From Citrobacter portucalensis (lineage in GTDB: Bacteria; Pseudomonadota; Gammaproteobacteria; Enterobacterales; Enterobacteriaceae), in contig NZ_MVFY01000002.1 in the NCBI RefSeq assembly GCF_002042885.1, positions 478,995 to 510,994 on the forward strand: 32,000 nt of DNA. Direction: 5' to 3'. Shown piece by piece: positions 7,781 through 28,319 of this stretch (position 1 is the first letter of the stretch; each line of letters starts with the position of its first letter). Made by a program: the position numbers and the translations under genes. The notes beneath the pieces were generated by a model. The model did not search any database and had not been told where the DNA came from. It saw nothing but the letters and a program-made list of their open reading frames with translations.

Positions 7781-10700
7781 TCAGGAATTTGGTTGATGGT
7801 TCTCAACTACCCAGACGGTGAGTACTTTTTCCAACGTTTTATCTCCCGTCGTTGCCTTCGCTCTTACCCAACTTACACCGGCCGTATCCGTTCTCAGTTC
7901 AGAGTAAGCATTCCCTAACTTAAAGTTGGTTTTATCCGGCGTCATCGTAAAGGTTCCGCTGCCGGGTTTGGCTTTGCTGCCTGCGCTAAATTCGACACTG
8001 CCGTTTAACGGGTTACCGAATTTATCCTGCAACCGTGCCATAAAGCCTACCGGCTCAAGGTTGGCAACGGCATAGCCAGGATCCTGCTCCAGAGTGAGCA
8101 CTGGATTCTGGGCATCGGCATTCAGCGTTATCGAAGCATTTGCCGAGACATTGCTACCGTGTTCAGCCAATGTGGCGGTCAGCGTGTAACGACCCGCCTT
8201 ATTACCGTGGACATTTACAGTCGCAGTACCGGAACCATTGGTGGTGACAAGCGTATTGTCAATCACCAGAGGATCGCGTGGCGATGGGCCTGTAGCCGTA
8301 ATTTTCAGCTTACGGTTGCTGACGCCGTTCCCTGATGTATCGGTCAGATGCAGGGTAAACGCCACGTTATCCACATCACTGACTACGGCGGATGTAGTTG
8401 ACGGTTCGATCGTCAACGCGGCATTTTGCAGATCCGATACCACCTCAATCGCCTTACTCGCCGTAACGCGTTTACCCTCTTTGATGAAGGTTGCCTGCAA
8501 TTGATAGTGCCCAGCTTCTGCGGCAATAAAGGTTGTTGATGCCATTCCTTTCTCATCCAATGTCAGTTCGGACTGGCCCAGTTTTAATCCACTGGCAGGG
8601 GAACTGGTCAGGTGCACGTCACCACTAAATGGGTTGTTTTCACCGTCGACAACCTGTACCTGAATTTCATGTGCCGCTGATGCGTTTGCCACAATGCTCT
8701 CAGACGGTGCGGTCAAATTCAGCACTGCGCTGTTAATATCAGGTACGAATTCCAGGCCAACGCTTGAGGACTCAACGCTGTGCTGCCCATCTGTAACCCT
8801 GGCATTAACGGTGTAATGACCTGCCTTAACCGTAGTTAACGTTACCGTCGCGTAACCGTCTTTATTGGTGGTGATTTTGTCCGGGTACACGAGCCCTTGT
8901 GGCGTTACGATAAGCTCCACTTTCTGTCCTTCAACCGACGCGGCGGTATTGTTGAGCATGATCTCAAGCGTGGCACCATCGCGACCGTTTGCTGCAATAT
9001 TGGTGATTGCGCCATTGTCTTTGGCCGTCAGAGACAATGTCGCCCCCTCCATTGCAGAGGCAAATGTTACGCTTAGCGATGAGCTGATGTTCCCCGCGCT
9101 TAGCGTAATATCATAAGTTCCCGGCGTTGAACTGGTCAGTGAGAATCTTGCTTCACCTTTGGCATCGGTCTTCACAACGTTCTCCCCATTCGCGATCTTA
9201 ACCTGTGGCGGTAACGCCAGAGTGACCGTGTATCCGGACAGCGGGTTCCCATAACGGTCGGTCAGGGTAACGACCGCGACATTACTCTGTTTGCCATCCG
9301 CCAGCGCATTGTCCCTGGTCAGGTTAAAAGCCTGCACCACCGGCTGCGTTTTGTCGGCAATCCAGTTGGCTTGTTTTTCCAGTCCGGAGAAATCATGTTT
9401 TTGTGACGTCACACCAATGCGTGTCGCTTGAGCCAGTTCAGACGTTGCCTTAGCGCTGTACACGCCGTCTTTCTCTTCTACGGCAGTAAAACGGACTTCG
9501 CCGCTGGCTGAAACTGCATAAAAACGTAAGCTGTCGTCGCCGGTGATGGCATTCCCGTCTTTATCTTTTGCTTCTAACGCCAGGCTAATCGGGTGTCCAA
9601 CGACCTGCTCCATGGGCATTACCGTGAATGTCGATTTTGCCGCCTCTGCGGAAACCGCTTTTAGTTTCACCGTCAGGGTTTCTGTTTTACCCAGGACTTT
9701 AGCGGTGATGCGTGCCGTCCCCGCCGTTAAACCCGGCGTCAGCGTGGCGGTATACACCCCGGAGCGGGTTTCCTGCACTTCACCAAGTTTTGGAGCCTGT
9801 GCTGAACGCTCACGATTTCTCTGTGCGTCAGGCGTAAACGCTAAAGACAACTCAATGTCATGTGCAAGCCCTGTTAACGGATTACCATTGGTATCTTTAA
9901 GCACCAGCGTAACCGGATGCTGTGACTTCCCGTCAGCCGCGATGATCGGTTGCTGCTCGCCGTTCAATGTAAAATCCATTGTGCCGACAGAGGCTGAACT
10001 CCCCGTCACCGTCACGTTCATCACCGCATAGTTAGAGACATTTCCTTTAACATCTCGCGCCGTTGCACCGATTTGCCAGTGATTAGTGCCGCCTGGTGTA
10101 TAAGCGGGTAACGTCAGTTGCCATGATGTGCCGCTACCGGAAATGCGTCCGCCAGCGGCGGTAAATGCGCTATCGTTCCACTCTACCGACTGAATGCCCC
10201 AGTGGGATTTATCCAGCGAAATAGTCACCGGAATAACGGCGCCACCTTCCCCCTGTACGCTTTCAGGCAGGCGGATTTTCAGAACCGATTTTTTGCGGTA
10301 TTCCAGAACAATATTGTTATTTCGTTCGACAAAATCGTAGCGTCCGTGCTGAACTTCGCGCATTAACGCAACATTGTCGCTGTCCAACTGCTTCGCCAGC
10401 GGGATGCCGGGGCGATAGTTAATCTCTATGCCGAAGCGTGAATCATGAGTATTGCTCTGCCCCTGCTTGTGTTCAGCGGAAAGCGTAACTAGAGGAACCG
10501 GCGTATAGCTGATCCCGCCTGTAAAGGCGTACGGATTTTCCTGAAGATGATCGCTGCCAAAGAGGCCGACATTCTTGCCGTAATACTTTTCATATTTAAG
10601 CGATGCGCCCAGTTGCGGATACGATGGCAACCAACCTTGGGTATAGATATCCCAGCCATCCGCCGGACGTTCCTGATAATCATCCAGATCGTGAGAATCC

Positions 10701-11323
10701 TTCCATTTTGATAATCTTAAATAAGCATTTGCGCCTGCGCGTAAATAATCTCGCCAATACTCAACGCCTGCACCCATACGTGCGTGATGACGACTTAAAT
10801 CGTAGTCATAAAATAAGTTTGCGCCCAGCATTGAATTATCCGCCGTGAAGTAGCGATAACCCATACCGATATTAGTTTGGGTTCTGTCATCGGTACGGTG
10901 AAGCGATGTCTGGCTAAATAAAACATGCTGCTTTGTATCAACCCACGGATAAAGGAAATCGAACGCCGAATCTTTCAACGAGAAAGCGTCATCGACGTTG
11001 AGTTGAATACGCGCATTACCGTACTTCTGTAGCCACTCTACCACCTCCTTCGTTGCCTGTGCTGAGACGGTATTGGCAGCAAAACTGCCCGCATGGCCGT
11101 TTTCAATGCTTCTGCCAGCCTGCGCGGCGAGAGAAGACAGACCGCGCAGTTCTTGCTGTTCTGCGGTGGCCTGCGATGCCTTAACGGCTGACGCATGGCT
11201 GATGGTTGGCGTGAAGCTAAGAAGGGCAGGATACAGAGCCTGCAAAGCGATTGTTGACCATGCGACAACCTTATTAACGGGGCCTGTTGCCCCATTGCTC
11301 CGCGAAATTTTCTTATTTGACAT
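7781..11323 (-). CDS. Inverse autotransporter adhesin of the intimin/invasin family (beta-barrel plus a tandem Big_1 Ig-like domain array)
   Basis: Start moved to ATG 11323 (GGAG 7 nt upstream); the track start at 11341 is TTG. The N-terminal region matches the intimin/invasin beta-domain (GMGYRYF, GANLFYDYD, GAGVEYWRDYLR, GWDIYTQGWLPSYPQLGASLKYEKYYG). At least six Ig-like repeats carry the motif (D/K)xxGNP(L/F)(S/T/N)G. Confidence 0.85.
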   Translation of the reverse strand: MSNKKISRSNGATGPVNKVVAWSTIALQALYPALLSFTPTISHASAVKASQATAEQQELRGLSSLAAQAGRSIENGHAGSFAANTVSAQATKEVVEWLQKYGNARIQLNVDDAFSLKDSAFDFLYPWVDTKQHVLFSQTSLHRTDDRTQTNIGMGYRYFTADNSMLGANLFYDYDLSRHHARMGAGVEYWRDYLRAGANAYLRLSKWKDSHDLDDYQERPADGWDIYTQGWLPSYPQLGASLKYEKYYGKNVGLFGSDHLQENPYAFTGGISYTPVPLVTLSAEHKQGQSNTHDSRFGIEINYRPGIPLAKQLDSDNVALMREVQHGRYDFVERNNNIVLEYRKKSVLKIRLPESVQGEGGAVIPVTISLDKSHWGIQSVEWNDSAFTAAGGRISGSGTSWQLTLPAYTPGGTNHWQIGATARDVKGNVSNYAVMNVTVTGSSASVGTMDFTLNGEQQPIIAADGKSQHPVTLVLKDTNGNPLTGLAHDIELSLAFTPDAQRNRERSAQAPKLGEVQETRSGVYTATLTPGLTAGTARITAKVLGKTETLTVKLKAVSAEAAKSTFTVMPMEQVVGHPISLALEAKDKDGNAITGDDSLRFYAVSASGEVRFTAVEEKDGVYSAKATSELAQATRIGVTSQKHDFSGLEKQANWIADKTQPVVQAFNLTRDNALADGKQSNVAVVTLTDRYGNPLSGYTVTLALPPQVKIANGENVVKTDAKGEARFSLTSSTPGTYDITLSAGNISSSLSVTFASAMEGATLSLTAKDNGAITNIAANGRDGATLEIMLNNTAASVEGQKVELIVTPQGLVYPDKITTNKDGYATVTLTTVKAGHYTVNARVTDGQHSVESSSVGLEFVPDINSAVLNLTAPSESIVANASAAHEIQVQVVDGENNPFSGDVHLTSSPASGLKLGQSELTLDEKGMASTTFIAAEAGHYQLQATFIKEGKRVTASKAIEVVSDLQNAALTIEPSTTSAVVSDVDNVAFTLHLTDTSGNGVSNRKLKITATGPSPRDPLVIDNTLVTTNGSGTATVNVHGNKAGRYTLTATLAEHGSNVSANASITLNADAQNPVLTLEQDPGYAVANLEPVGFMARLQDKFGNPLNGSVEFSAGSKAKPGSGTFTMTPDKTNFKLGNAYSELRTDTAGVSWVRAKATTGDKTLEKVLTVWVVENHQPNS

Positions 11324-11693
11324 TTGTAACTCCAATATCAATTAAAAAAATCAAAGGTTATTCCATGTACTGAACGGGATGCGTAATATATGTATTTAGT
11401 AGGAAAATTCAAGAGTTGTTCATGGAGAAGTTAACTGGATATTTTTACACTATGCGGCATTGTGGGCTGGCTAACGATGTCGAACGTTTAAATGACGAAT
11501 GTATTTAATAAATACGTTTATTTTTATCGTGACGATTTTAAGCCTGTAGGGATATTATTTAACCATGGTCGTTCACTGTTAAATAAAAAGAGTTATCATG
11601 AAATTAATCTGCCTGTTCGTATTCAGCTATCATCACGTTCTCCGGATTTAAGTCTGGAACGTGTCAACGCTTTCAGGACGGGGCAAAGAGCAT

Positions 11694-11720
11694 AAAAAAG
11701 CCCGCATAAGCGGGCTTTTA
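11694..11720. terminator. Bidirectional-looking rho-independent terminator (possibly the displaced native ssrA terminator)
   Basis: AAAAAAGCCCGC-ATAA-GCGGGCTTTTA: 7-bp GC stem, 4-nt loop, A-run on one side and T-run on the other. The AAAAAAGCCCGC core also occurs at 22952-22963 next to ssrA. Confidence 0.55.
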
Positions 11721-11921: not shown

Positions 11922-11944
11922 GTGTACCTAAACGTGTACCAATT
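11922..11944 (+). repeat. 23-bp exact direct repeat, copy 1 (putative integrase arm-type site)
   Basis: gtgtacctaaacgtgtaccaatt is identical to 22887-22909 and contains the internal tandem GTGTACC x2. It lies ~55 nt inside the left att candidate and overlaps the stop codon of the 166-aa ORF. Confidence 0.7.
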
Positions 11945-12443
11945 AAAAGATCTCAGGTTCAGCAACCTTGCTCCAGCGGAGTCTACTAATAGACTTGAAT
12001 TTTGCTATGCCTAGCTGATTTCGCTCATTTCTAGACTTTGATCCCGGAGCTTGAAGAGCTGCGACTACTACATCTCGTGATGCTTCATACATGGCAAAAG
12101 CATCATAATTTTCATCAAGCAAAACTAAAAGAACAGAATCAAATGGCTTAGATATATCAATAGCACCAATTCTCGCAGAAACTTTTTTACGATCAGGCAT
12201 GTATCGACCTTTGATTTGAACTCTATGCTCTTTCCCGTCCAAAAGCTCAGTTGCATCATATCCAGACTGACGTGCTGAACACAGTGATAACCCAAGAAGA
12301 GTTGCAGCCTCATATTCAGCTATTTCTCCAGTGATTCCGAGAGGCTTATTGGTTAATTTGTAATACCTTAGCGCCACATCTTTAGCTTCATTTAGTATGT
12401 TTAAAATTTTTTCATGGTTTTCTTGAAGCAAAATAGTCCCCAT
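11943..12443 (-). CDS. Hypothetical 166-aa protein with a PD-(D/E)xK-like core (satellite cargo gene)
   Basis: GAGGGA lies 6 nt upstream of the ATG. Motif series GE40IAE43...GYD63A...VQ76IK78 (nt 12210-12257). AT-rich relative to the satellite core. Function is inferred from the motif pattern only. Confidence 0.55.
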   Translation of the reverse strand: MGTILLQENHEKILNILNEAKDVALRYYKLTNKPLGITGEIAEYEAATLLGLSLCSARQSGYDATELLDGKEHRVQIKGRYMPDRKKVSARIGAIDISKPFDSVLLVLLDENYDAFAMYEASRDVVVAALQAPGSKSRNERNQLGIAKFKSISRLRWSKVAEPEIF

Positions 12444-12567
12444 AAAATTCCCTCTGGCTTAACACGTTACGAATTAATGTGCTGTCTTGGTTAGGCTTTC
12501 AGCTAACTTGGATCTTTCCATAGAGTATGGAGAGCTACATCATACTCAAAAATAGTTTTTTTGCATT

Positions 12568-12835
12568 TAACTGTTCACACTGTTCACCACGCTGATTTCC
12601 TATTTTAAATCATACAGATAAATGGTGATGAGTTGGTGAAGAGTGAACAGTCGACTCTTCACCTTTGTGATTTTTGCTCGTTCTGGATCTGCCCGGTCGG
12701 GCGATGTGAGGGGTGATAAAAAGTTTTTTCAGGTTTTACTGTTCACACTGTTCATCTCTGGTTTTTTATCAATAATTTCATGGTGATACAGGGTGAATAT
12801 ACGGTGAAGGGTGAACAGTGGATTGTTCACCTTGT
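12568..12835. repeat. crr-like cis replication region: two ~95-bp direct modules of TGTTCACC-type iterons
   Basis: Module 1 spans 12571-12663 (ctgttcacactgttcacc ... ggtgaagagtgaacagtcgactcttcacc). Module 2 spans 12739-12831 (ctgttcacactgttcatc ... ggtgaagggtgaacagtggattgttcacc). They are offset by 168 bp and lie just downstream of alpha, as in P4. Confidence 0.65.
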
Positions 12836-16021: not shown

Positions 16022-16105
16022 ATGGGTGGTGACCCGAACGGGGGTAGGAATACCGGCTTCACAGAATACCGGCCAGCCCGAAAGCTGCCCCGCCCGGACC
16101 ACCAT
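16022..16105 (-). ncRNA. Candidate P4 CI-type immunity RNA (contains the seqB element); ends approximate
   Basis: An outer stem AUGGUGGU/ACCACC(C)AU encloses ~70 nt containing AUUCUGUGAAGCCGGUAUUCCUAC. This is complementary to two flanking sites (seqA 16201-16226, seqC 15979-16019). It sits in a non-coding gap between orf88-like and the first left-operon ORF, as cI does in P4. Confidence 0.45.
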
Positions 16106-16170
16106 TATCTGACAGGGGCTATGGAATAAGCACCACAGCCCGAAAAATGGGTGTGCCTGAGCAACGACGT

Positions 16171-16193
16171 AAAAAAAGACGCATGGCGCGTCT
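16171..16193 (-). terminator. Rho-independent terminator immediately after seqA (immunity terminator candidate)
   Basis: Minus strand reads AGACGC-GCCAU-GCGUCU followed by UUUUUUU. Confidence 0.6.
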
Positions 16194-16200
16194 GTTGTCG

Positions 16201-16226
16201 CCTGTGAATTACACGGGTTCCTACGC
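16201..16226 (-). promoter_or_regulatory. seqA-like target of the immunity RNA
   Basis: The RNA reads GCGUAGGAACCCGUGUAAUUCACAGG, with the same two half-sites as seqC, complementary to the seqB candidate. Confidence 0.45.
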
Positions 16227-16255
16227 CCGGCTGCCGATTTTGCGGCAGCGGGAAA

Positions 16256-16285
16256 ACTATACCTGGAAACGGCGAAAAGAAGCAA
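16256..16285 (-). promoter_or_regulatory. Sigma70 promoter candidate for the left operon (PLE-like)
   Basis: Minus strand has TTGCTT (16285-16280), an 18-nt spacer, then TATAGT (16261-16256). The predicted start is just before a GCTGCCG/CGGCAGC hairpin and seqA. Confidence 0.5.
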
Positions 16286-17129: not shown

Positions 17130-17933
17130 ATGAAACCAGATTTGTTTACCGCAGTAATGAAAACCATCGGCAGCACGCAGGATGAGAAAATCCGCACGGC
17201 CATTGACAGCGCACTGGATACCCTTAACGAGAAAGCAAACCAGAACGCCGAGGTCACGATAAATAACGCTCTTGATGTGTTCAGCAAGGCCAAATCCGCA
17301 CACACGGAAAATATGCTGAAACTGAATGATATTGATGCCGCCATTATCCGCAGCGGGAAAGAGCGTCAGAACGCGCTGAATGAAAGTGCCGAAGCCGAAC
17401 AGAACTGGCGTACCCGTTTTCGCGAACTGCGCGGCATGATGACCCCGGAACTGAAAACCGAACACAGTCAGCGAGTGGCCGGTCGGGAGCTGGCGGAAGA
17501 ATTCACCGCCCTGATTGATGAGCTCAACGATGATAAAGCCAGTACCATGCTGGCCGCCTGTACATCAGGAAAAGAATACGTCAGCGCCCATTCAGAGGCG
17601 CTTTCTGCCCATGCCCGGAATGAGTGGTCGGCGGTCATGAAAGAGATTCCCCCGGCGCTGGTACGCGCTTTTGCGTTACGCCTGCGTGAGCTCGAAATTA
17701 AGGGAGAAGAACACCCTCACAACGTTCTCATTCAGGAGTTGGGTGAGAATGTACTGGCGCAAAGCAGGTTCTACACATTCAACATGGCGCAGGAGCCGGT
17801 AATTTCAATAATTGGGCTTCACCGTCCGGCTCTTACCGGCGTGGACATGAAACTCTATAAAAGCCCTGCTCTCAGAATGGCGCGGGCTAAAGAGCTGGCG
17901 CAGAAGAAAAAATCACAGGGGGTTAAGCCATGA
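17130..17933 (+). CDS. sid: Sid-like capsid size-determination (external scaffold) protein
   Basis: First gene of the sid-delta-psu order. The segment WRTRFRELRGMMTPELKTEHSQRVAGRELAEEF resembles my recollection of P4 Sid. Predicted to be largely helical. Its stop overlaps the delta start in ATGA. Confidence 0.6.
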   Translation: MKPDLFTAVMKTIGSTQDEKIRTAIDSALDTLNEKANQNAEVTINNALDVFSKAKSAHTENMLKLNDIDAAIIRSGKERQNALNESAEAEQNWRTRFRELRGMMTPELKTEHSQRVAGRELAEEFTALIDELNDDKASTMLAACTSGKEYVSAHSEALSAHARNEWSAVMKEIPPALVRAFALRLRELEIKGEEHPHNVLIQELGENVLAQSRFYTFNMAQEPVISIIGLHRPALTGVDMKLYKSPALRMARAKELAQKKKSQGVKP

Positions 17934-18172
17934 TGCGCTGCCCGTACTGCAAACAGGCTGCCCATGTCCGTACCAGTCGCTACCTGTCGGATAACGTCAA
18001 ACAGAGCTACCTCCAGTGCGTGAATGTCTTTTGCTCCACGACCTTTCGCACCATCGAGTCTATTGACGAGGTGATACGGCCACCGGCAGAAGAAAAGCCC
18101 GAACCACCACAGACGGTATCAGAAACACCGACCCGAATTCTGGACTGCGCCCGCTCATCGCTGCGCCACTGA
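17930..18172 (+). CDS. Ogr/Delta-family zinc-finger late transcription activator
   Basis: 80 aa with CPYC-x22-C-x4-C (C4, C7, C30, C35), the Ogr/Delta zinc-finger spacing. Single-domain form rather than the duplicated P4 Delta. Confidence 0.8.
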   Translation: MMRCPYCKQAAHVRTSRYLSDNVKQSYLQCVNVFCSTTFRTIESIDEVIRPPAEEKPEPPQTVSETPTRILDCARSSLRH

Positions 18173-18188
18173 TTCAGGAGAAAAGAAA

Positions 18189-18764
18189 ATGGCACGAGCA
18201 CTACTGGAACAGGCCTTTGAAACCTGTCAGAAGAATAAATCGGACTGGATGAGCAGCAAGTCAGCACTGGCGCGGGCTGAAATGGCGCTAAAAGAGCTGG
18301 AGCTGACCTGTACCCGTTATGAACCGGAGGCAGCACAGGCGCTGCGTGATGATATTGACCTGAAAATATGGGCGGTAAATCAGTCGGCCGGGCAGTACAT
18401 CCGGTCGCATGAAGCCGTGCAGCGTATCAGTATCCGTCGTCAGCTCCACGCCTTTATGCAGGTAAGCGGCGACGCACTGGCCGCCGTACTGGCACCAGAA
18501 TTAATGCATCTCAGCGAACAACCTGACATCGTCAGAGAACGGGCTCTCGATCGGGCGGTCGCCAGTGTTCGCGAAGCGCTGTCCGTTCATGTAACCCGCG
18601 GAGGAAATATTGATTACGCAGAGGAAGATCGCGACATTCTGACAACCATCGGTTTCCGGCCTGACAGAGCATCGAGAGACGACAACCGGGCAAAATATAC
18701 GCCTGAACAGAGTCAGATTTTCATACGCCGACAGGCCGCACAGACCCGCAAAAAATCAGCATAA
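18189..18764 (+). CDS. psu: Psu-like polarity suppression / capsid decoration protein
   Basis: 191 aa (P4 Psu is 190 aa). Conserved stretches I recall from P4 Psu are present: LEQAFETCQ, YIRSHEAVQRISIR, ILTTIGFRPD. Confidence 0.8.
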   Translation: MARALLEQAFETCQKNKSDWMSSKSALARAEMALKELELTCTRYEPEAAQALRDDIDLKIWAVNQSAGQYIRSHEAVQRISIRRQLHAFMQVSGDALAAVLAPELMHLSEQPDIVRERALDRAVASVREALSVHVTRGGNIDYAEEDRDILTTIGFRPDRASRDDNRAKYTPEQSQIFIRRQAAQTRKKSA

Positions 18765-18928
18765 AACACCCCGAAAATACCCGTCTTTTTAATAAAAATA
18801 GCCATGCATGCCTACGCTGCATGGCTTTGCATGCAAAAACCTGAATTTTCCACACCCTGCCGCACCAGTACTGGCGCGGCCTGAGCCCCTTCATGCTCCT
18901 GCATTAAAAACGCCCCAGGAAGCGGGCA

Positions 18929-18947
18929 GGCGTGGCGGGGAGAGCAT
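18929..18947. other. cos-like 19-mer (P2/P4 cohesive-end sequence candidate)
   Basis: GGCGTGGCGGGGAGAGCAT matches the P2/P4 cos sequence as I recall it (GGCGAGGCGGGGAAAGCAC) at 16/19 positions. It is at the expected place after psu. Confidence 0.45.
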
Positions 18948-19271
18948 TGCGCGCAAGAACTACAAAGTGTGTGTTTATTTTGGCAGTAAAATACAATGCT
19001 ATACAGTACTGATTCTTTGGGGGTTGTGATAATGAGAACCTCATTAACCTTATGAAGATACTAGGATGCAGGTTTTGGCATAAAGCAAATATTTACGGAG
19101 GGAAACGTAATAAGTAAAATTAGTTATGCGTGTAGATGTTAGATTGGATTAACGCATTGTAATATATAGAATTATTAAAGTGGAATTGTCTTTGCTTTTA
19201 AAGTTTTAAATATGCGGATTTACGCCTCCGAATGTAAAAATATCTTGGAGGCGTGTTTTGTATATTAATAA

Positions 19272-20009
19272 TTACCGCTGAAACTCCGTGTCTATGAAGT
19301 TTTCATCAGTTATGGCCGTCATTATCTGGAAAAACATTTCTTCTGGCTGGATGAATGCTAGTTCACGGCATAGGATTGTTATGTCATCATTGTAAACTAT
19401 TCCCATTCTAGGATTGAATAATTCAAACTTTTGGAGAGGGCGTTTTTCTCTGGAGTAGAAGTTAAGTGTAAAATAGATTAGTAATTGTCTTAAATCATAT
19501 ACACTAAATTTCCTATCGCCAGATTTTATTTCTACAAGTGTATTTGGGTAGTAAATGTCTCCGTATGAGTTATTGATTATCCCACAACCTGAAAATAAAG
19601 GTGAGGAGATGGTTTGGTATATGCGATACCTATTTAATATATTCCACGCTATACTTTTAATGCTGTTATATTCGGGAACTGATAAAGGTAATTCAAAATT
19701 AGAACCGTAGCTAAATTTTCTTAATTCAAGCTCTGTTTTCTCTATAACTCTCGAGAATTCTGGGGCGTAAAAAAGATCATTCGACAAAAGTAATTGCTCG
19801 CTAATAATATTGTTATGTATTGCAACATACAGATTAAAACCACACTCATTAACAAAAACATTATTTTCCTTTTTCCCATTTTCATCAAGGGGGGGATAAA
19901 CATCATCAATCAAACTACCGTTAACTATTCTTATGAAATTATTGGCGTTTGGAAGAAGTTGATTCCAATATGAAGTGAATTTTCTTGAAAAAGTCAATTC
20001 AGAAATCAT
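19272..20009 (-). CDS. RecB/Cas4-like PD-(D/E)xK nuclease-fold protein, partner of the reverse transcriptase (245 aa)
   Basis: The start ATG overlaps the RT stop in ATGA (20006-20009). Core GCGIINNSYGD151IYYPNTLVE160IK162SG (nt 19524-19559), followed by Q175LLIY179 (QxxxY). About 30% GC. Confidence 0.65.
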   Translation of the reverse strand: MISELTFSRKFTSYWNQLLPNANNFIRIVNGSLIDDVYPPLDENGKKENNVFVNECGFNLYVAIHNNIISEQLLLSNDLFYAPEFSRVIEKTELELRKFSYGSNFELPLSVPEYNSIKSIAWNILNRYRIYQTISSPLFSGCGIINNSYGDIYYPNTLVEIKSGDRKFSVYDLRQLLIYFTLNFYSREKRPLQKFELFNPRMGIVYNDDITILCRELAFIQPEEMFFQIMTAITDENFIDTEFQR

Positions 20010-21634
20010 AAAGCATCCTCCAGATTACGTGATGTTTGTCTGTAACTAGCCCAATCTCTGTATATTACTTCAATGAAGTTAAAGGTTGCTTTATTGTGGT
20101 CTCTCCAGTGCCTCCCTTCGTCACCGAGTAAGAAACTGGAGATTATCAATAATCTGCGTTGCAAAGGATGTAATCCAGCAAAGTTTTTCTTTATGTCTGA
20201 GAGCCAAGGAATTACTCTTAGCTTTGCCATTGATTGAGTTACAGTATTTTTTATCAATTGACTTTCTGGGTTTTTTTTATAAATCTCAGTAAGTATAAGT
20301 ACTGATTTTTCACTATTTTCTTTAGATAGCATTCTGGCGACATAAGCAATGTTTAACTCTGCTTTGAGAATGTAAGATTCATCTCTAATTAATTGAATTA
20401 TTTTATCCAGGATAATATTTTTTGTGGTGGTGTCAATTTTTTGCCAATTAGCAGATGCTACTTGCATTATTGTGGTGAATATTGGATATAGTTCATTTAA
20501 ATTATTGAACATAACTTTAAATGCACTTGAAATAGTTTCATTCGATGTTACGGAAAATGCTTTAATCAAATGCTTGCTAAATGATTGATTTATTTTTGAT
20601 TTTTGTAGTTCGCTATTGAGCATGGCTAAGAGATCAAAATCTTTTAGAGCCTCTTTAATTTCTTCATACTCCTCAACTGCATTTGCTGAATAAGGGTCAA
20701 ATCTGATAGGTAAGCTCATGAATTTTGCTTTCATAGGGGCTTCTTCATCTTCCTCGCTTCCATGTAATTTTGCTTTAGTTACAGATAAAAATTCTTCTTT
20801 TGAGACAATGTTGGTTTTATGTTTTTGCAACGTCAGACCTTCATTCTCCATTAATTTTTTGCTGATAAAGGTTAATATGTTATGAGCTTCCTCTTTAGAT
20901 TGGCAAAAAATAATGAAGTCATCAACATACCGTTTATAGCTTATTTGATTCATTGAGAGTAACTGGTCAATGGAGTCTAAGGCAAGTTCAGCAAGTATTC
21001 TAGATGCAGGGCATCCTACTGGTACACCATATGATTTTGTTTCAGTGAATAATTGTAGCAGTTTTTTTATTTTATATGAGTATTCCCTTTGCGGATCAAT
21101 GCGATCTAAGGCGTTCTCTAATCGGTGATGATATATCCTTGGATAGAAATCAGCAATATCACAAGTAAGTATATACTTGATACTATCATCTTGACATTTA
21201 GTTATGCTGTCCTCCTGATATTTTCGCCATGATATTCCTTTATCAAAAAGAGTTCCTTCATCTAAGTTAGGAGAAAATCTATATGAGTACACTTTATCTG
21301 AGTTCGCTCTTCTGTCTTCAATATCTTTAGATAAACGTATGACAAGCCCTAAGAAAAAAGCGTTCCAGTATGGATCTATTTGAGTTGCCCATCGATAACC
21401 ATAATAGCCTACACTTGAAAAACTGTTAATTAGAGTCGGCTGATAATCAACTTTATGTTGTTCGAAGTTTTCGAATGTATCCATTAAAGCATCAATGACT
21501 ATGTCTTTTTTGTCCTCGAATAAACGACTCTCGAAAGGATATGGGAAAATATCAGTATCACCATGTTTAATGATGTTTAATAAAGCCAAATTAAAACAGT
21601 CTTCTAACTTATTATTATTAAATACGTTAGGCAT
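20006..21634 (-). CDS. Abi/UG-like reverse transcriptase with a helical C-terminal domain (542 aa)
   Basis: Motif A ILTCDIADFYPRI (aa 155-167), motif B GVPVGCPASRILAELAL (203-219), motif C YKRYVDDFIIF (YVDD = nt 20918-20929), motif D/E GLTLQKHKT (266-274). An acidic linker (SEEDEEAP) is followed by ~240 aa with no signature I recognise. AGGAG lies 9 nt upstream of the ATG, inside the end of int. Confidence 0.9.
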   Translation of the reverse strand: MPNVFNNNKLEDCFNLALLNIIKHGDTDIFPYPFESRLFEDKKDIVIDALMDTFENFEQHKVDYQPTLINSFSSVGYYGYRWATQIDPYWNAFFLGLVIRLSKDIEDRRANSDKVYSYRFSPNLDEGTLFDKGISWRKYQEDSITKCQDDSIKYILTCDIADFYPRIYHHRLENALDRIDPQREYSYKIKKLLQLFTETKSYGVPVGCPASRILAELALDSIDQLLSMNQISYKRYVDDFIIFCQSKEEAHNILTFISKKLMENEGLTLQKHKTNIVSKEEFLSVTKAKLHGSEEDEEAPMKAKFMSLPIRFDPYSANAVEEYEEIKEALKDFDLLAMLNSELQKSKINQSFSKHLIKAFSVTSNETISSAFKVMFNNLNELYPIFTTIMQVASANWQKIDTTTKNIILDKIIQLIRDESYILKAELNIAYVARMLSKENSEKSVLILTEIYKKNPESQLIKNTVTQSMAKLRVIPWLSDIKKNFAGLHPLQRRLLIISSFLLGDEGRHWRDHNKATFNFIEVIYRDWASYRQTSRNLEDAL

Positions 21635-21636
21635 TC

Positions 21637-22836
21637 TTATTTACTCCTAGCTTCTTTGATATATTCTCCCCACCACGTAAGTAGTTGGGTTCTCTGTTCT
21701 AAATAAAGAGCATGATTATATGCTCTCCTAACTTCATTTTTATCCGTATGTGCAAGAGTTGATTCTATTACATCTGCATTGAATCCTTGTTCATTTAACG
21801 TTGTACTTGCGATAGACCTTAAGCCATGTGCAACAAGTTTTCCACCATAACCGATCCGCTTAAGTGCAGCATTAGCCGTCTGGCTATTCATTGCTTGTTT
21901 GGGATCGTTTCTGCTCGGGAAAATATGTTCTCGGTGAGCACTTATAGGTTTCATTATCTCCAAAATATCTAATGCTTGGGATGATAAAGGAACAATATGT
22001 TCACGCTTAGCCTTCATCCTATCGGCTGGAATCGTCCAGAGCTTTGTATCGAGATCGATCTCAGCCCACCGAGCGCCAGAAGCCTCAGAAGGGCGCACAA
22101 CAGTCAGGAGCTGCCACTCAATAAGACAGCGAGTCGGTACAGACAAATTTGACATAATCAAAGAGCGCATGAGCTTCGGCAATTCTTCTGGTCGTAGCGT
22201 CGGCATGTTTTGTTTTTTGGGTTTCTCAAAGGCCATACCAACACCTGATGCCGGATTTGCATCGATTAAGCCAGTGTTCACCGCATAAATCATAACCTCA
22301 TTTACACGCTGTACTAAGCGGCGAACTGTCTCCAGAGCTCCGCGCGCTTTGATTGGCTCCAATGCTTCAACAATCGTTCTGGCCTTTATCTCCTGAACGG
22401 GTATTGCACCGATTGCCGGGAACACGTCCTTATCTAAAGAGCGCCATATATCTTTCGCGTAATCCTCTGTGACGCTTTTGCTTTTCATTTTGAACCAGTT
22501 GGCGGCCACTGTTGAGAAAATGCTATCCAGCTCAATCTGACGTTGCTCTGATGCTTGCTCTTGCTGCTGTTGTGGATCCATCCCCTGCGCGAGCGTAGCC
22601 AAATATTGGTCGCGTATCTGACGAGCTGTTGCGAGTGTAAGGGCAGGATATGAGCCGAGACTCAAATTTGTGCGGCTGCTGCTTCCCGGTCGTTGATAAC
22701 GGAAGCGCCAGAGTTTTTTACCAGTGGTTTTGACGAGCAAGAACAAGCCATCACCATCATGAAGGGTGAAGTCTTTTTCACGGGGTTTGGCTTTAAGGAT
22801 TTCATTGTTAGTGAGGGGGCGTGTGATACGCGCCAT
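21637..22836 (-). CDS. int: P4-family tyrosine integrase
   Basis: 399 aa. N-terminus LTNNEILKAKPREKDFTLHDGDGLFLLVKTTGKKLWRFRY is the typical P4-integrase arm-binding domain. C-terminal catalytic boxes HGLRSIASTTL and RRAYNHALY. Adjacent to the ssrA 3' end. Confidence 0.9.
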   Translation of the reverse strand: MARITRPLTNNEILKAKPREKDFTLHDGDGLFLLVKTTGKKLWRFRYQRPGSSSRTNLSLGSYPALTLATARQIRDQYLATLAQGMDPQQQQEQASEQRQIELDSIFSTVAANWFKMKSKSVTEDYAKDIWRSLDKDVFPAIGAIPVQEIKARTIVEALEPIKARGALETVRRLVQRVNEVMIYAVNTGLIDANPASGVGMAFEKPKKQNMPTLRPEELPKLMRSLIMSNLSVPTRCLIEWQLLTVVRPSEASGARWAEIDLDTKLWTIPADRMKAKREHIVPLSSQALDILEIMKPISAHREHIFPSRNDPKQAMNSQTANAALKRIGYGGKLVAHGLRSIASTTLNEQGFNADVIESTLAHTDKNEVRRAYNHALYLEQRTQLLTWWGEYIKEARSK

Positions 22837-22853
22837 GTCTGGATCCTTTCCAT

Positions 22854-22909
22854 AATTGGTACACGTTTAATGGACCACAGTATAGCGTGTACCTAAACGT
22901 GTACCAATT
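22854..22909. repeat. Inverted repeat upstream of int that includes copy 2 of the 23-bp direct repeat
   Basis: aattggtacacgttta (22854-22869) is the reverse complement of taaacgtgtaccaatt (22894-22909). 22887-22909 is identical to 11922-11944. The element lies 18-73 nt upstream of the int start codon. Confidence 0.65.
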
Positions 22910-22950
22910 TTCTCTGGATTTAGCCGGATGTTCTCGGACAACGACAGACA

Positions 22951-22986
22951 CAAAAAAGCCCGCAGGGCTTGTGCCGTGCGGGCTTT
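22951..22986 (-). terminator. Rho-independent terminator downstream of ssrA (supplied by the island side)
   Basis: Minus strand reads AAGCCC-UGC-GGGCUU followed by UUUUG. The alternative longer stem is GCCCGCA...UGCGGGC. It lies 35-70 nt after the tmRNA CCA end. Confidence 0.6.
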
Positions 22987-23019
22987 CTGTACTTCACCGG
23001 ACGTATCCGGATCATGATT

Positions 23020-23383
23020 TGGTGGAGCTGGCGGGAGTTGAACCCGCGTCCGAAATTCCTACATCCTCGGCACTACATGCTTAGTCAGTCTTTACATTCG
23101 CCTGGCACCTGCGGACAGACACGCCACTACCAGACTAGCCTGATTAGTTTTAACGCTTCAACCCCAGGCAGGGCCTCCACGCGATCTCTTTTGGGTTTGA
23201 CCTCTCTTTGATCCCCGTCTTAAGAGCGGAAGCTAGGGAGAGAGGGCTCAGAGCAGGTTATTAAGCTGCTAAAGCGTAGTTTTCGTCGTTTGCGACTATT
23301 TTTTTGCGGCTTTTTACGAGGCCAACCGCCCCTCGGCATGCACCTTGGGTTTCGCGAATCCCGTCGAATCCAGAATCAGCCCC
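23020..23383 (-). ncRNA. ssrA: tmRNA (SsrA)
   Basis: The reverse complement starts GGGGCTGATTCTGGATTCGACGGGATTTGCGAAACCC and ends GGTTCAACTCCCGCCAGCTCCACCA. The tag reading frame GCAAACGACGAAAACTACGCTTTAGCAGCTTAA (ANDENYALAA*) is at 23261-23293. Confidence 0.95.
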
Positions 23384-23455
23384 AATGTGTTAGAGCAAGT
23401 ATAACAGACTTGTGACACGCGTGACCAGCCCCCGCAACCCCTAATCCTCAAGGAT

Positions 23456-26813: not shown

Positions 26814-28219
26814 AGCTTGATCTCCACCGATTGAATGCTGCGATTATTTAAGGCGAACGCCTGGCGAAGCGAGCCAGTGTTATAGAGGCAGTTCAGCTGG
26901 AGCTGGCGCAGCTGGTTTTGAGTCTGGAGTTCGGCAAAACGGGCCTGATACACCTCTTGCTCGGCGTTAAGCACGTCGAGCAGCGGGCGCGAACCGAGGT
27001 CCAGATACTGCTGTTGATAAAGCTCGCGCGTTTGTTCACTCAGTCGCTGCTGGCGGCGCAGAATCTGCAGGGCGGTGGCGAGGCTCATTGCCTGGCTGCG
27101 GGACTCCAGTAATTTTTGTCGTACTTCGAGTCGGGTGCGCTGGATGGAGTATTGTGCAGACTCTACCGCATGGCTGGCGGCGTTGTGCCTGGCGGTGAGT
27201 CCGCCCCCCTGATACAGCGGCATCTCAACTTTTACCCACGTTGAGTACTGGGTTTTGTCGAGCACCTCATGGCTGGGGTATTTGTCGTTGAGATAATGCT
27301 GCACCGACGGTTCCAAAGAGATGGTGGGCGTCATCTGCGCGTTGGCGTAATCGAGATTTGCCTGTGCCACATTTGCCTGCGCCCAGGCCGCCAGAACCGC
27401 GGGAACCAGTTTATCTTCCGGTTTGACCACATCGCAGCTGCTGTCCAGTTTGGCCGGGAATTCGTTGCTGATGCCGTTAAGTGAGTTCCAGCCGAGGTAA
27501 CTCATCAATGTGGCCTTACTGCTGTCGAGATTGGCCTGATACTGCGCCAGCTGAGAACGCGCAGACTCGATACGCGCATCGGTTTGCACCACGTCGGACA
27601 GCGAGGTTGCCCCTTCATCATTGCGTTGTCGGGTCAGTCGACCAATGTCGTTTAAGGCGGTGAGCTGTTCTTCGGCGGCGTCCACCATTTGCTGCCACGT
27701 CTGCACCTGGACTATCGCGTTGGCGGTTGCGTGGGCGATGGTATCAATACTGAGTAACACATTCGCCTGCTGTTGTGCGGCTCCGGCGGTCTCGGCGCGG
27801 ACCTGGCTTGCCACTTTGCCGAAGTCGTACAGCATTTGTGACACCGAAATAACCAGCGCCGGGCTAAAGCCGTGGTCGGTATAGGTATTGCTGTAACCGT
27901 TATTCATTCCGGCAGAAACCTGCGGGTAATATTTCGATTTCGCCACGTCGATCTGTTCGTTTTGCGAAAGCAGTTTGCCGATCGATTCACGAATAGAAGG
28001 ATGCCAGCTCACGGCACGACTTACCGCGTCGTTGAGCATCAGGTTGCCGGGGGCGGCAGCGCTCAGCGGCAGATCGGCAACCGCGCCGTCCAGCGAGGGA
28101 AGCATCTGGCTGGTGGCCAGTCCTTCCGGCGTAATAATTTGCGGTTCATCTTCGGCATTCACCCGCAGGGTACAGAGCGTTAATGCCAGAAGTAATGCAA
28201 CAGGCGCGACATTTCTCAT
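26810..28219 (-). CDS. bapB: TolC-family outer membrane channel of the type I secretion system
   Basis: 469 aa. Signal peptide MRNVAPVALLLALTLCTLRVNA, then two TolC-like repeat halves rich in coiled-coil sequence. Confidence 0.85.
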   Translation of the reverse strand: MRNVAPVALLLALTLCTLRVNAEDEPQIITPEGLATSQMLPSLDGAVADLPLSAAAPGNLMLNDAVSRAVSWHPSIRESIGKLLSQNEQIDVAKSKYYPQVSAGMNNGYSNTYTDHGFSPALVISVSQMLYDFGKVASQVRAETAGAAQQQANVLLSIDTIAHATANAIVQVQTWQQMVDAAEEQLTALNDIGRLTRQRNDEGATSLSDVVQTDARIESARSQLAQYQANLDSSKATLMSYLGWNSLNGISNEFPAKLDSSCDVVKPEDKLVPAVLAAWAQANVAQANLDYANAQMTPTISLEPSVQHYLNDKYPSHEVLDKTQYSTWVKVEMPLYQGGGLTARHNAASHAVESAQYSIQRTRLEVRQKLLESRSQAMSLATALQILRRQQRLSEQTRELYQQQYLDLGSRPLLDVLNAEQEVYQARFAELQTQNQLRQLQLNCLYNTGSLRQAFALNNRSIQSVEIKL

Positions 28220-28319
28220 AGTTTATCCCTTACAAAATACGGCAGCGACGACTGTTATTGCCCCGGACGTCATGGCATCCGGGGCTGTAGTTATGGCGCT
28301 TTAACGCATTGCGTTAACG

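Follow-up and report, generated by a model that had tools for sequence, protein, structure and literature searches.

Genomic context of the cassette

The window analyzed here, a 32,000-nucleotide stretch of the Citrobacter portucalensis genome, contains a P4-like satellite of ~11 kb that is inserted beside the ssrA gene and carries a two-gene cassette between int and cos/psu (Table 1). The satellite is made up of int, psu, delta, sid, alpA, an ash-type repressor region with the C4/CI RNA, and an alpha primase, along with a cos-like site and att repeats; its core genes were recognized with PHROG profiles, the C4 antisense RNA was detected together with isrK, and the element is bounded by the two exact 23-nt att repeats (GTGTACCTAAACGTGTACCAATT) that are spaced by 10,965 bp. 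The psu product is identical to a RefSeq protein annotated as 'phage polarity suppression protein', and the cos-like site (GGCGTGGCGGGGAGAGCAT) matches, at 16 of 19 positions, the sequence that we take to be the P2/P4 cohesive end. The same gene order, with the Pfam families Psu, Ogr_Delta, Phage_AlpA and Phage_ASH, is found in one of the related loci that we retrieved (L012), and identical copies of the cos-like site are located ~120 nt past the nuclease gene in several others (L002-L006); the 200 nt around this site belong to the conserved backbone.

Table 1. Positions in the window of the two cassette genes, their motifs and the surrounding satellite features
Feature	Position	Strand	Basis or remark
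Predicted drt8 RT gene	20006..21634	-	542-aa ORF
RT catalytic motif YVDD (Y236-V237-D238-D239)	20918..20929	-	translation
Predicted RecB-like PD-(D/E)xK nuclease gene of DRT8 (RT-associated; 'cluster 17' of Mestre et al.)	19272..20009	-	245-aa ORF
Nuclease motifs II-III, D151 ... E160-x-K162	19524..19559	-	invariant in 27 family members
Nuclease motif IV, Q175-x3-Y179 (RecB-family QxxxY; QLLIY)	19473..19487	-	invariant; helix 170-184 of the model
Stem-loop	19222..19254	-	18 nt past nuclease stop; sequence and fold
Satellite tyrosine integrase (int), int-side hotspot border	21637..22836	-	PHROG integrase, E=3.9e-70
psu (polarity suppression), oriented convergently to the cassette	18189..18764	+	PHROG 6366, E=3.3e-60
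cos-like site, psu-side hotspot border	18929..18947	+	likeness to P2/P4 cohesive end
att repeat, right	22887..22909	+	beside ssrA
att repeat, left, at the other satellite end	11922..11944	+	exact 23-nt direct repeat of 22887-22909
ssrA (tmRNA)	23020-23383	-	RNA search

The core genes, the cos-like site, the att repeats and ssrA bear out the first-pass annotation of this DNA, which had placed the cassette in the int-psu defence hotspot of a P4-like satellite. As in the P4 hotspot described previously (Rousset et al. 2022, PMC9122126; NAR 2026, PMC13586616), the interval from int to cos/psu holds AT-rich cargo that varies among satellites that are related in other respects, and the present satellite shares with the described ones a second cargo region between the primase and att, the attachment site here being ssrA rather than a tRNA gene.

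The sizes and coordinates of the two ORFs, the 4-bp ATGA overlap (20006-20009) in which the RT gene stops and the nuclease gene starts, and the gap of 2 bp between the int stop codon (21637-21639) and the RT ATG were all reproduced from the ORF translations. The cassette tract has a GC content of 33%. Its initial description as an AT-rich cassette holds for composition (GC fraction of 0.25-0.42 per 100 nt over 19001-21800 against 0.5-0.6 in the flanks) but not for extent, given that the AT-rich tract runs from ~19000 to ~22000, is wider than the cassette and takes in the last ~360 bp of int, where the GC fraction is 0.38 compared to 0.50 in the remainder of this gene. A stem-loop (ACGCCUCC...GGAGGCGU) downstream of the nuclease gene is a probable end-of-operon hairpin; it was missed by the simple terminator scan, and in loci L002-L004 an inverted repeat occupies the corresponding position (+10 to +39). 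A scan of the cassette for promoters and terminators gave no excess over shuffled sequences. Transcription of the cassette may proceed by read-through from int or from a promoter inside the AT-rich 3' end of int.

The reverse transcriptase

The translation of the first gene carries the RT palm motifs reported originally, namely DIADFYP, GVPVGCPASRILAELAL, YVDD and GLTLQKHKT, and V237, D238 and D239 of the catalytic motif are invariant across 32 RT homologues. The Pfam RVT_1 profile matches this protein with E=1.4e-18, and a comparison with the PADLOC models identified Drt8 as by far the best hit (E=4.1e-159), with residues 11-530 aligned to profile positions 4-490 of 493. The second-best PADLOC RT model, RT_UG21 (9.1e-34), is 125 orders of magnitude weaker, and AbiP2 yields only 1.9e-19.

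In the AlphaFold2 (AF2) model (pLDDT 88), an N-terminal region is followed by the fingers, palm and thumb (residues ~60-300), a flexible linker (~293-316) and a C-terminal helical-repeat (alphaRep) domain (~319-541) that consists of consecutive helices (pLDDT ~90), as in Class 1 UG/Abi RTs. The ~240 residues that follow the palm, in which no signature had been read at first, thus do have an assignable architecture, that of an alphaRep-type domain, according to the model and the Foldseek search. The top Foldseek matches of the RT model are UG15/DRT4, DRT6 (TM 0.61/0.66), Abi-P2, AbiA and AbiK, and the structural alignments to these proteins are near-full-length (~420-650 alignment columns). Together with the Drt8 match, these neighbours agree with the earlier reading of the first gene as a UG/Abi-type RT, and we classify it, on the basis of the predicted structure, as a Class 1 UG/Abi enzyme with a helical-repeat C-terminal domain. 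Two tyrosines, Y118 and Y315, are invariant among the RT homologues, and Y315 is part of the D313-P-Y315-S motif, itself invariant, of the disordered linker; this conservation is only suggestive of these residues being candidate priming tyrosines.

The partner nuclease

The product of the second gene matches the PADLOC RTasPDDEXK profile with E=1.4e-62, residues 1-239 being aligned to profile positions 1-225 of 226. The D151-x8-E160-x-K162 pattern followed by QLLIY, from which a RecB-like PD-(D/E)xK nuclease had been predicted, is present in the translation, and G150, D151, E160, K162, Q175 and Y179 are invariant in 27 members of the family down to 27% identity, so that these motif residues cannot be attributed to chance; E113 (motif I), located on a helix, is at least 90% conserved. 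In the AF2 model (pLDDT 88.9), D151 lies just ahead of strand 152-154, and E160 and K162 lie within strand 157-161 or at its end, so that the residues of motifs I-IV occupy the expected strands and helix, or positions beside them, of the alpha-beta-beta-beta-alpha-beta core of the RecB-like nucleases. The top Foldseek matches of the model are Dna2, Cas4, AdnA, RecE and MGME1; the E-values are poor (3.8e-3 at best, with TM ~0.3-0.4), and all the best matches are RecB-family nucleases. Taken together with the RTasPDDEXK match and the invariant motifs, they support the assignment of the second gene.

A search of the PDB sequences with the profile of the nuclease family retrieved no match even at E<=10; the fold was accordingly assigned from the model and the motifs. 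Thus, the protein shares the core fold and the motif series with the RecB-family nucleases (Cas4, the Dna2 domain, AddB/AdnA, RecE and MGME1) and differs from them in the lack of sequence homology to PDB chains that these searches can detect. It also lacks the four-cysteine Fe-S cluster of the Cas4, Dna2 and AddB subgroup, with C142 as the sole conserved cysteine in the family alignment, and therefore appears to resemble the cluster-free RecE/MGME1-type enzymes rather than Cas4 proper. The N-terminal ~130 residues are helical in the model and have no close match in the PDB.

Assignment to DRT type 8

The combination of a UG7 RT with a PD-(D/E)XK effector ('cluster 17') has been defined as DRT type 8 (Mestre et al. 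2022, NAR, PMC9226505). In that study, a UG7 system provided robust protection against T5 in E. coli, mutation of the active site of either the RT or the nuclease led to the loss of defence, and the presence of UG7 in P2/P4 hotspots was noted; no ncRNA was reported for UG7, and approximately half of the UG7 RTs were found to lack an adjacent nuclease, which led the authors to propose either that the nuclease is an accessory or that nucleases act in trans (PMC9226505). In one described DRT8, the usual nuclease gives way to a PNP ATP-nucleosidase as the effector. In the present locus, the Drt8 match places the RT in the UG7 clade, the adjacent, co-oriented gene that overlaps it belongs to the RTasPDDEXK family, and the catalytic residues are intact in both proteins (YVDD; D151, E160 and K162). 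Judging from these sequence features, the cassette is almost certainly a DRT type 8 anti-phage system that consists of a UG7-clade RT and a translationally coupled PD-(D/E)xK nuclease. The two genes, the full-length family matches, the intact YVDD and D-ExK motifs, the Class 1 alphaRep and the P2/P4 location all correspond to the published DRT8 (PMC9226505), from which we found no architectural difference, the present locus being one allele from C. portucalensis. The defence role of the family is established by the published experiments on another UG7 member.

These results contradict the headline of the first-pass annotation, where the cassette was called uncharacterized and no named architecture was thought to combine an RT with a separate RecB-like nuclease: DRT type 8 is exactly such an architecture (PMC9226505), and the two genes match its dedicated models (E=4e-159 for Drt8 and E=1.4e-62 for RTasPDDEXK). 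The cassette falls into an already characterized two-gene DRT type, an outcome that removes the claim of novelty and leaves the proposed function standing. The phage challenge and the active-site mutants of both genes envisaged for this locus have already been done for DRT8 (Mestre et al. 2022, PMC9226505), so that the architecture, the defence role, the dependence on the two active sites and the P2/P4 location have been known since 2022. A new RT plus RecB-like nuclease architecture outside the UG/DRT types is accordingly highly improbable: the generic labels that might suggest it (RefSeq contains these very proteins, from C. portucalensis, as 'RNA-directed DNA polymerase' and 'hypothetical protein', and neither gene has a specific name in Pfam or NCBIfam) are outweighed by full-length, very strong matches to two dedicated DRT8 models and by a published definition and validation that fit precisely (PMC9226505). 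Such uninformative naming makes DRT8 genes easily mistaken for novelty. The notion that the RT comes from a group II intron, a retron or a DGR, and thus from a mobile retroelement, next to an unrelated ORF can be practically dismissed, given that the RT models of group II introns and retrons match it weakly, in the palm domain, and far under their cutoffs (77.6 bits against 300 for the RT-maturase model TIGR04416, and 60.4 against 235), no maturase/X domain and no intron or msr/msd RNA in Rfam were found, and the pairing with the nuclease is strictly conserved.

Distribution and synteny of the pair

Related loci were collected by a single-protein contig scan, which yielded 2 loci only, by look-ups of the exact proteins and by a scan of IMG/VR. 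The RT and the nuclease, whose association had been proposed for a check of co-occurrence, are syntenic in all 22 loci fetched, which come from Klebsiella, Citrobacter, Brenneria, Vibrio, Acinetobacter, a MAG and IMG/VR contigs; in each of these, the nuclease gene starts at or overlaps the RT stop codon, with RT identity down to 46%. Copies that are 96-100% identical occur in Klebsiella, Cronobacter and Enterobacter, and a megablast search with positions 19030-21640 against all complete E. coli genomes gave no match, indicating that this allele is absent from that collection.

In Vibrio cholerae, the pair by itself constitutes a cassette of an integron, where the RT gene starts ~50 nt from attC. 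This arrangement delimits the functional unit of DRT8 to two ORFs and might be useful to those who work on this system. The same could apply to another comparative observation, namely that the module of int and DRT8 is 99-100% identical between satellites that share only 26-58% identity in psu, delta and sid. The tight int-RT junction recurs in loci with unrelated integrases (36-41% identity). We also considered that the AT-rich 3' end of int travels with the cassette; the int 3' ends in the loci with unrelated integrases are only ~61-63% identical at the DNA level to that in the window, which does not demonstrate a shared int fragment and lends this idea no support.

Possible mechanism

The mechanism of DRT8 is listed as not established in a 2026 review. 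The closest structural relatives of the RT, namely DRT4, DRT6, Abi-P2, AbiA and AbiK, are template-independent, protein-primed polymerases (PMC12783706), and because of this relationship we consider AbiK/Abi-P2-like untemplated synthesis, toward which the first-pass annotation had also leaned, to be the most plausible chemistry for the RT. Among solved folds, DRT4 (UG15) and DRT6 (UG12) come nearest (Foldseek E~1e-11, TM up to 0.61-0.66), and they have the RT and alphaRep in common with the present protein; like DRT8, they are active against T5, and they are T5 ORF55-triggered, protein-primed, template-independent ssDNA synthases. Unlike DRT8, both are single-gene systems without a dedicated nuclease, their sequence similarity to the present RT does not extend beyond the palm (~135 residues, E=2.6e-15), and the priming Tyr125 of DRT4 has no demonstrated equivalent in it. 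AbiK, Abi-P2 and AbiA likewise are Class 1 UG/Abi RTs with an alphaRep and untemplated, protein-primed synthesis; Abi-P2 is also carried in a P2-family hotspot, and AbiA primes from a tyrosine in the linker between the RT and alphaRep, to which D313-P-Y315-S of the present RT is comparable. They differ from DRT8, with its separate nuclease, in that AbiK and Abi-P2 lack a separate effector and AbiA carries its effector as a fused HEPN domain.

By analogy with these systems, the RT would make protein-primed, template-independent ssDNA with no need for an ncRNA; infection, for example through a T5-type protein that binds ssDNA ends or through the loss of host exonuclease control, would allow this DNA to persist or change; the product would then license the nuclease; and the latter, as the effector, would degrade DNA and abort the infection. 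We put this chain of events at slightly less than an even chance. The effector role is assigned to the nuclease because its active site is needed for defence and because an ATP nucleosidase takes its place in one DRT8; the nuclease-free half of the UG7 RTs fits an accessory, not an obligatory, effector. More tentatively, and with doubts of our own, we suggest that the protein-linked, untemplated ssDNA might be the activating ligand or substrate handle of a nuclease that threads DNA ends, rather than the toxin itself. If so, DNA synthesis would serve as a second-messenger-like signal, a coupling new to DRTs, and the effector would be modular, as the ATP nucleosidase swap suggests. For the locus as a whole, a DRT8 system in a P4-like hotspot that combines the RT with its dedicated nuclease is the best overall explanation, and we regard it as highly probable.

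Several other relationships between the two proteins can be envisaged. The nuclease could be a processing or regulatory partner that trims or releases the RT-linked ssDNA, with the ssDNA itself being toxic or a decoy, as proposed for DRT4, DRT6 and DRT9. The ssDNA of DRT4 and DRT6 is indeed the proposed toxic agent, its level being set by ExoI/SbcB-type nucleases, the relatives Cas4, Dna2, RecE and MGME1 are enzymes that process ssDNA ends, and the accessory or in-trans role suggested for nucleases in UG7 systems (PMC9226505) is compatible with such a function. Nevertheless, we consider it unlikely, given that the active-site mutation of the nuclease abolishes defence, unlike what would be expected of a purely negative regulator, and that the substitution of an ATP nucleosidase is a classic swap of effectors, not of DNA-processing enzymes.

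Also unlikely, in our view, is a retron-like or toxin-antitoxin-like arrangement, in which the RT together with its DNA product would restrain an intrinsically toxic nuclease until phage factors remove or alter this DNA and so free it. The conservation across loci of the translational coupling through ATGA suggests a stoichiometric complex, and the RT catalytic mutant loses defence, as it does in retrons; however, the closest relatives of the RT are not retron-like and have no msr/msd, the NCBIfam retron models, as well as Drt2 and Drt3, score far below their cutoffs, and toxicity of the nuclease alone has no support.

Finally, it appears very improbable that the RT copies a specific RNA template, in the manner of DRT2, DRT3 and DRT9, that resides in the coding sequence, in the 3' end of int or elsewhere. 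Several DRTs (2, 3 and 9) do require an ncRNA, the AT-rich tract reaches 360 bp into int, and the comparison of flanks is blind to embedded RNAs. The ncRNA beside the RT that characterizes DRT2, DRT3, DRT9 and retrons is, however, not evident here, as the first-pass annotation had anticipated from the 2-bp gap to int: Rfam searches of the cassette region at the gathering and E-value thresholds gave no ncRNA match, flank-to-flank blastn across the loci showed no conserved non-coding flank, and the 322-nt 3' tail contains no small ORFs and folds only into a hairpin past the stop codon (z=-1.9). Furthermore, UG7 belongs to Class 1 UG/Abi, whose characterized members are untemplated, and has no reported ncRNA, the V. 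cholerae integron cassette consists of the two genes only, and the same cassette is found in satellites whose integrases are only 36-41% identical.

Under the favoured reading, in which ssDNA made by the RT would license the nuclease, the present locus offers a clean natural example for studying the coupling between DNA synthesis and the nuclease in DRT8. The DRT8 locus is compact (2.4 kb) and naturally mobile.

Identification of the cassette as DRT type 8

Translation of the window bears out the two overlapping minus-strand ORFs of the first-pass annotation, including their coordinates and the ATGA shared by the RT stop and the nuclease start. The motifs quoted there are also in place, namely DIADFYP, GVPVGCPASRILAELAL, YVDD (20918-20929) and GLTLQKHKT in the RT, and D151/E160/K162 (19524-19559) followed by QLLIY in the nuclease. 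The pair looks anonymous because the sole Pfam match of the RT is RVT_1, the 245-aa partner has no Pfam match at all, and no NCBIfam model scores above its cutoff. The RT matches the Drt8 model of PADLOC-DB (E=4.1e-159; residues 11-530 aligned to positions 4-490 of the 493-position profile; RT_UG21, the second-best RT model, 9e-34), and the 245-aa protein matches, over its full length, the 'RTasPDDEXK' model (RT-associated PD-(D/E)XK; E=1.4e-62). Mestre et al. 2022 described two variants of UG7 RTs, one of them with a 'cluster 17' PD-(D/E)XK nuclease-like protein, reported UG7 RTs from P2 phages and P4-like satellites, within their variable regions, and rebuilt a UG7 system in E. coli K-12 that provided robust protection against T5, which was lost when either the catalytic site of the RT or the active site of the PD-(D/E)XK protein was mutated; they named this system DRT type 8 (PMC9226505). 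Thus, an RT with a separate RecB-like nuclease, an architecture for which the first-pass annotation had no name and which it proposed as a candidate uncharacterised system, is a published and tested type.

All the testable defining features of DRT8, Class 1 UG/Abi RTs and P4-like satellites were found, as were those of RecB-like nucleases, with the exception of the one specific to the Fe-S subgroup. The defining features of group II intron RT-maturases (NCBIfam, 77.6 bits; cutoff, 300), retrons (NCBIfam St85, 60.4 bits; cutoff, 235) and ncRNA-dependent DRTs were not found. RefSeq contains identical RT, int and psu proteins under Citrobacter portucalensis, labeled only 'RNA-directed DNA polymerase', 'integrase' and 'phage polarity suppression protein'. 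The cassette was therefore read correctly from the sequence but is a rediscovery of DRT8: the system type, its function, the hotspot location and the exact proteins are already public. Its remaining value is that of a compact natural example for work on the DRT8 mechanism.

Coordinates of the DRT8 cassette and the surrounding satellite features
Feature	Position	Strand	Basis	Remarks
alpha primase	12884-15268		gene content of satellite	
C4/CI antisense RNA + isrK	16022-16262		Rfam	
psu	18189-18764		gene content of satellite	phage polarity suppression protein
stem-loop	19222-19254		fold of 322-nt tail	18 nt after nuclease stop
nuclease ORF	19272..20009	-	translation	245 aa
RT ORF	20006..21634	-	translation	542 aa
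int	21637..22836			integrase, 399 aa; RT start 2 bp past its stop
att direct repeat	11922-11944 and 22887-22909			exact, 23 nt; spacing 10,965 bp; bounds element
ssrA (tmRNA)	23020-23383			3' end ~110 bp from satellite right end

Structure models and conserved residues

In the AF2 model of the RT (pLDDT 88, pTM 0.87), fingers, palm and thumb are followed by a linker with low-confidence segments at 293-298 and 314-316 and by a helix stack from ~319 to 541. As modeled, this stack is an alphaRep domain, the hallmark of Class 1 UG/Abi RTs, and explains the ~240 aa beyond the RT motifs in which the first-pass annotation could read no signature. The top Foldseek matches are UG15/DRT4, DRT6 (TM 0.61/0.66), Abi-P2, AbiA and AbiK. 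A sequence search detected no solved DRT8 protein structure, the best match being UG15, palm only (E=2.6e-15). The candidate priming residue Y118 is invariant, within S-Y-R, and so is the D313-P-Y315-S motif of the disordered RT-alphaRep linker, which is analogous to the linker tyrosines of AbiA.

For the nuclease (AF2 pLDDT 88.9, pTM 0.86), the model places D151 just ahead of the strand 152-154, E160 and K162 on or at the end of the strand 157-161, and Q175 and Y179 on the helix that follows. Across 27 family members with identities as low as 27%, no variation occurs at G150, D151, E160, K162, Q175 or Y179; E113, located on an upstream helix, is at least 90% conserved in the same alignment. 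The best Foldseek PDB matches, Dna2, Cas4, AdnA/AddA, RecE and MGME1, are all RecB-family nucleases, with modest scores (best E=3.8e-3, probability 0.98-0.99); sequence profile search found no PDB relative. Together with the invariant motif residues, these matches support a RecB-like PD-(D/E)xK assignment. Unlike Cas4 and Dna2, the nuclease lacks the Fe-S cluster, given that only one cysteine is conserved.

The P4-like satellite and its cargo

The cassette lies between int and cos/psu of a P4-like satellite that also encodes an ash-type repressor, AlpA, Sid and Delta. A cos-like site (18929-18947) matches the P2/P4 cohesive end at 16 of 19 positions, and loci from Citrobacter and Klebsiella have an identical copy ~120 nt downstream from the nuclease gene. 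The gene content, the att repeats and this site thus place the cassette in the int-cos/psu hotspot, in agreement with the psu-int slot proposed from the sequence. The hotspot has been described by Rousset et al. 2022 (PMC9122126) and surveyed again (NAR 2026, PMC13586616).

The AT-richness noted previously is evident, with GC of 0.25-0.42 per 100 nt from ~19000 to ~22000 against 0.5-0.6 in both flanks. The low-GC tract extends past both cassette ends. On the nuclease side it takes in ~320 nt of non-coding sequence beyond the stop, and on the other side the final ~360 bp of int (21637-22000, minus strand), a segment as AT-rich as the cargo (GC 0.38 versus 0.50 in the remaining int). The RT ATG follows the int stop by 2-20 bp, even with satellite integrases of only 36-41% identity. 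The cassette may be transcribed by read-through from int or from a promoter within the AT-rich int 3' segment.

Several other elements were detected in and around the satellite. The isrK match (16172-16249, minus strand; Rfam, 77.5 bits) is located beside the C4/CI RNA and overlaps an a1/b1 C4-target element, as expected of P4-type immunity regions, and isrL (27938-28291, plus strand; Rfam, 331 bits) is in the chromosomal flank. A 37-nt repeat with ACTGTTCACACTGTTCA at its end is present twice (12550-12586 and 12718-12754, 168 bp apart) in the AT-rich region beyond the alpha primase gene; in position and sequence the two copies resemble the P4 ori/crr primase-binding repeats (TGTTCAC iterons). 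An imperfect direct repeat, CAYAAAAAAGCCCGCA (15/16; 11691-11706 and 22949-22964), flanks the att repeats just on the outside, its right copy overlapping a terminator-like hairpin (22956-22970) downstream of ssrA. This repeat may belong to a longer attB segment that was duplicated, or it may have been left by an earlier insertion. A 166-aa ORF immediately inside the left att repeat (11943-12443, minus strand) lies in a low-GC stretch (0.39-0.44) and matches PADLOC mREase_II over its full length (E=6.7e-100) as well as Pfam DUF6998; by sequence, this second defence cargo, which occupies the minor hotspot between primase and att in P4-like satellites, is a predicted type II methyl-directed restriction enzyme. 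An inverse autotransporter of the intimin/invasin type (7781-11341, minus strand; 1186 aa; IAT_beta, Big_1 and Invasin_D3 repeats) is encoded directly beyond the left att site.

Distribution and mobility

The pairing suggested for a co-occurrence check is conserved: a homologue of the 245-aa protein begins at or overlaps the RT stop in 22/22 fetched related loci. These span Brenneria, Citrobacter, K. quasipneumoniae, V. cholerae (61% RT identity), A. baumannii (50%), one metagenome-assembled genome (46%) and seven IMG/VR contigs; protein searches added 14 RT/nuclease match pairs, paired by an identical length of the longest contig. RT alleles of the same cluster (at least 90%) occur in Klebsiella, Cronobacter and Enterobacter, and a K. 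quasipneumoniae genome with the order smpB-ssrA-int-RT-nuclease-psu-delta-sid-alpA-ash-alpha encodes a 100% identical RT and nuclease. Six of the fetched loci are complete P4-like satellites with integrases 41-99% identical to that of the window, so that different satellite lineages carry the same cargo in the same slot. In V. cholerae (L007, 5830-8510; also L008 and L009), the pair is an integron cassette between VCR/attC repeats, among DUF3709/DUF645 cassettes; hence satellite hotspots and the superintegron both carry this defence unit.

Comparison of window positions 17927-23432 with a K. quasipneumoniae satellite (L012, 6580-12088) revealed a ~93% identical DNA block that includes the cos region and encodes 99-100% identical int, RT and nuclease proteins, whereas, within this block, Psu, Delta and Sid are only 55%, 58% and 26% identical, respectively (Alpha, 91%). 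This pattern indicates modular exchange, with either the helper-subversion genes or the int and cargo module having been swapped. At four other K. quasipneumoniae loci (L003-L006; L004, 4061-7717), a split integrase (113 + 232 aa) downstream of proA precedes the DRT8 pair, followed by the cos-like site, ~200 nt of satellite backbone and chromosomal genes (UDG, MalT-like). With no psu, delta, sid or alpha at these loci, they look like decayed P4-like satellites that retained the defence cargo; the RT cluster has 854 member sequences.

ncRNA and mechanism

The first-pass annotation saw no room for an upstream ncRNA, a point addressed here by four approaches. An Rfam search of 18700-22950 (E<=1) yielded a single match, to a Drosophila lncRNA model and at chance level (E=0.86). 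Comparison of the flanks between loci recovered nothing but integrase coding sequence on the upstream side and, downstream, the cos region of the satellite backbone. Folding of the 322-nt AT-rich tail gave z=-1.9, mostly owing to the stem-loop. In V. cholerae, the interval between the upstream attC and the RT ATG is only ~50 nt, and on the other side attC begins at the nuclease stop; the integron-mobile unit consists of the two ORFs alone. A flanking DRT2/DRT9-type ncRNA is very unlikely.

The present analysis or published work establishes DRT8 family membership, conserved pairing, intact active sites, the need for both active sites and the anti-T5 activity of one family member. The mechanism is given as not established in a 2026 review. 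The closest characterised relatives of the RT are constitutive, protein-primed, template-independent ssDNA synthases; for DRT4/DRT6, host ExoI keeps the product low until T5 ORF55 caps the 3' end and the product accumulates (PMC12783706). From the chemistry of these relatives, the DRT8 RT would be expected to make untemplated, protein-linked ssDNA, possibly primed by Y118 or the linker residue Y315. The nuclease is most likely the effector, because its active site is required for defence in the published system (PMC9226505), and because in one DRT8 a Cap17-type ATP nucleosidase replaces 'the usual nuclease effector'. The conserved ATGA coupling hints that RT and nuclease form a complex of fixed stoichiometry. 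Alternatively, the DNA itself may be toxic and processed by the nuclease, or, in a retron-like arrangement, the RT-DNA may restrain a toxic nuclease. A third, less likely possibility is that the RT uses a hidden RNA template, for example, one embedded in the coding sequence.

In Brenneria bubanii (L001, 9626-10363), the nuclease homologue stops after 196 codons, although the similarity runs on to 246 aa; either a sequencing error or pseudogenisation of the effector may explain this. An 896-aa ENA metagenome protein (P0078) combines a UG7-like RT, with 56% identity across 99% of the query, and protein-kinase domains (PF07714/PF00069) in one fusion and may represent another DRT8 effector or sensor variant.
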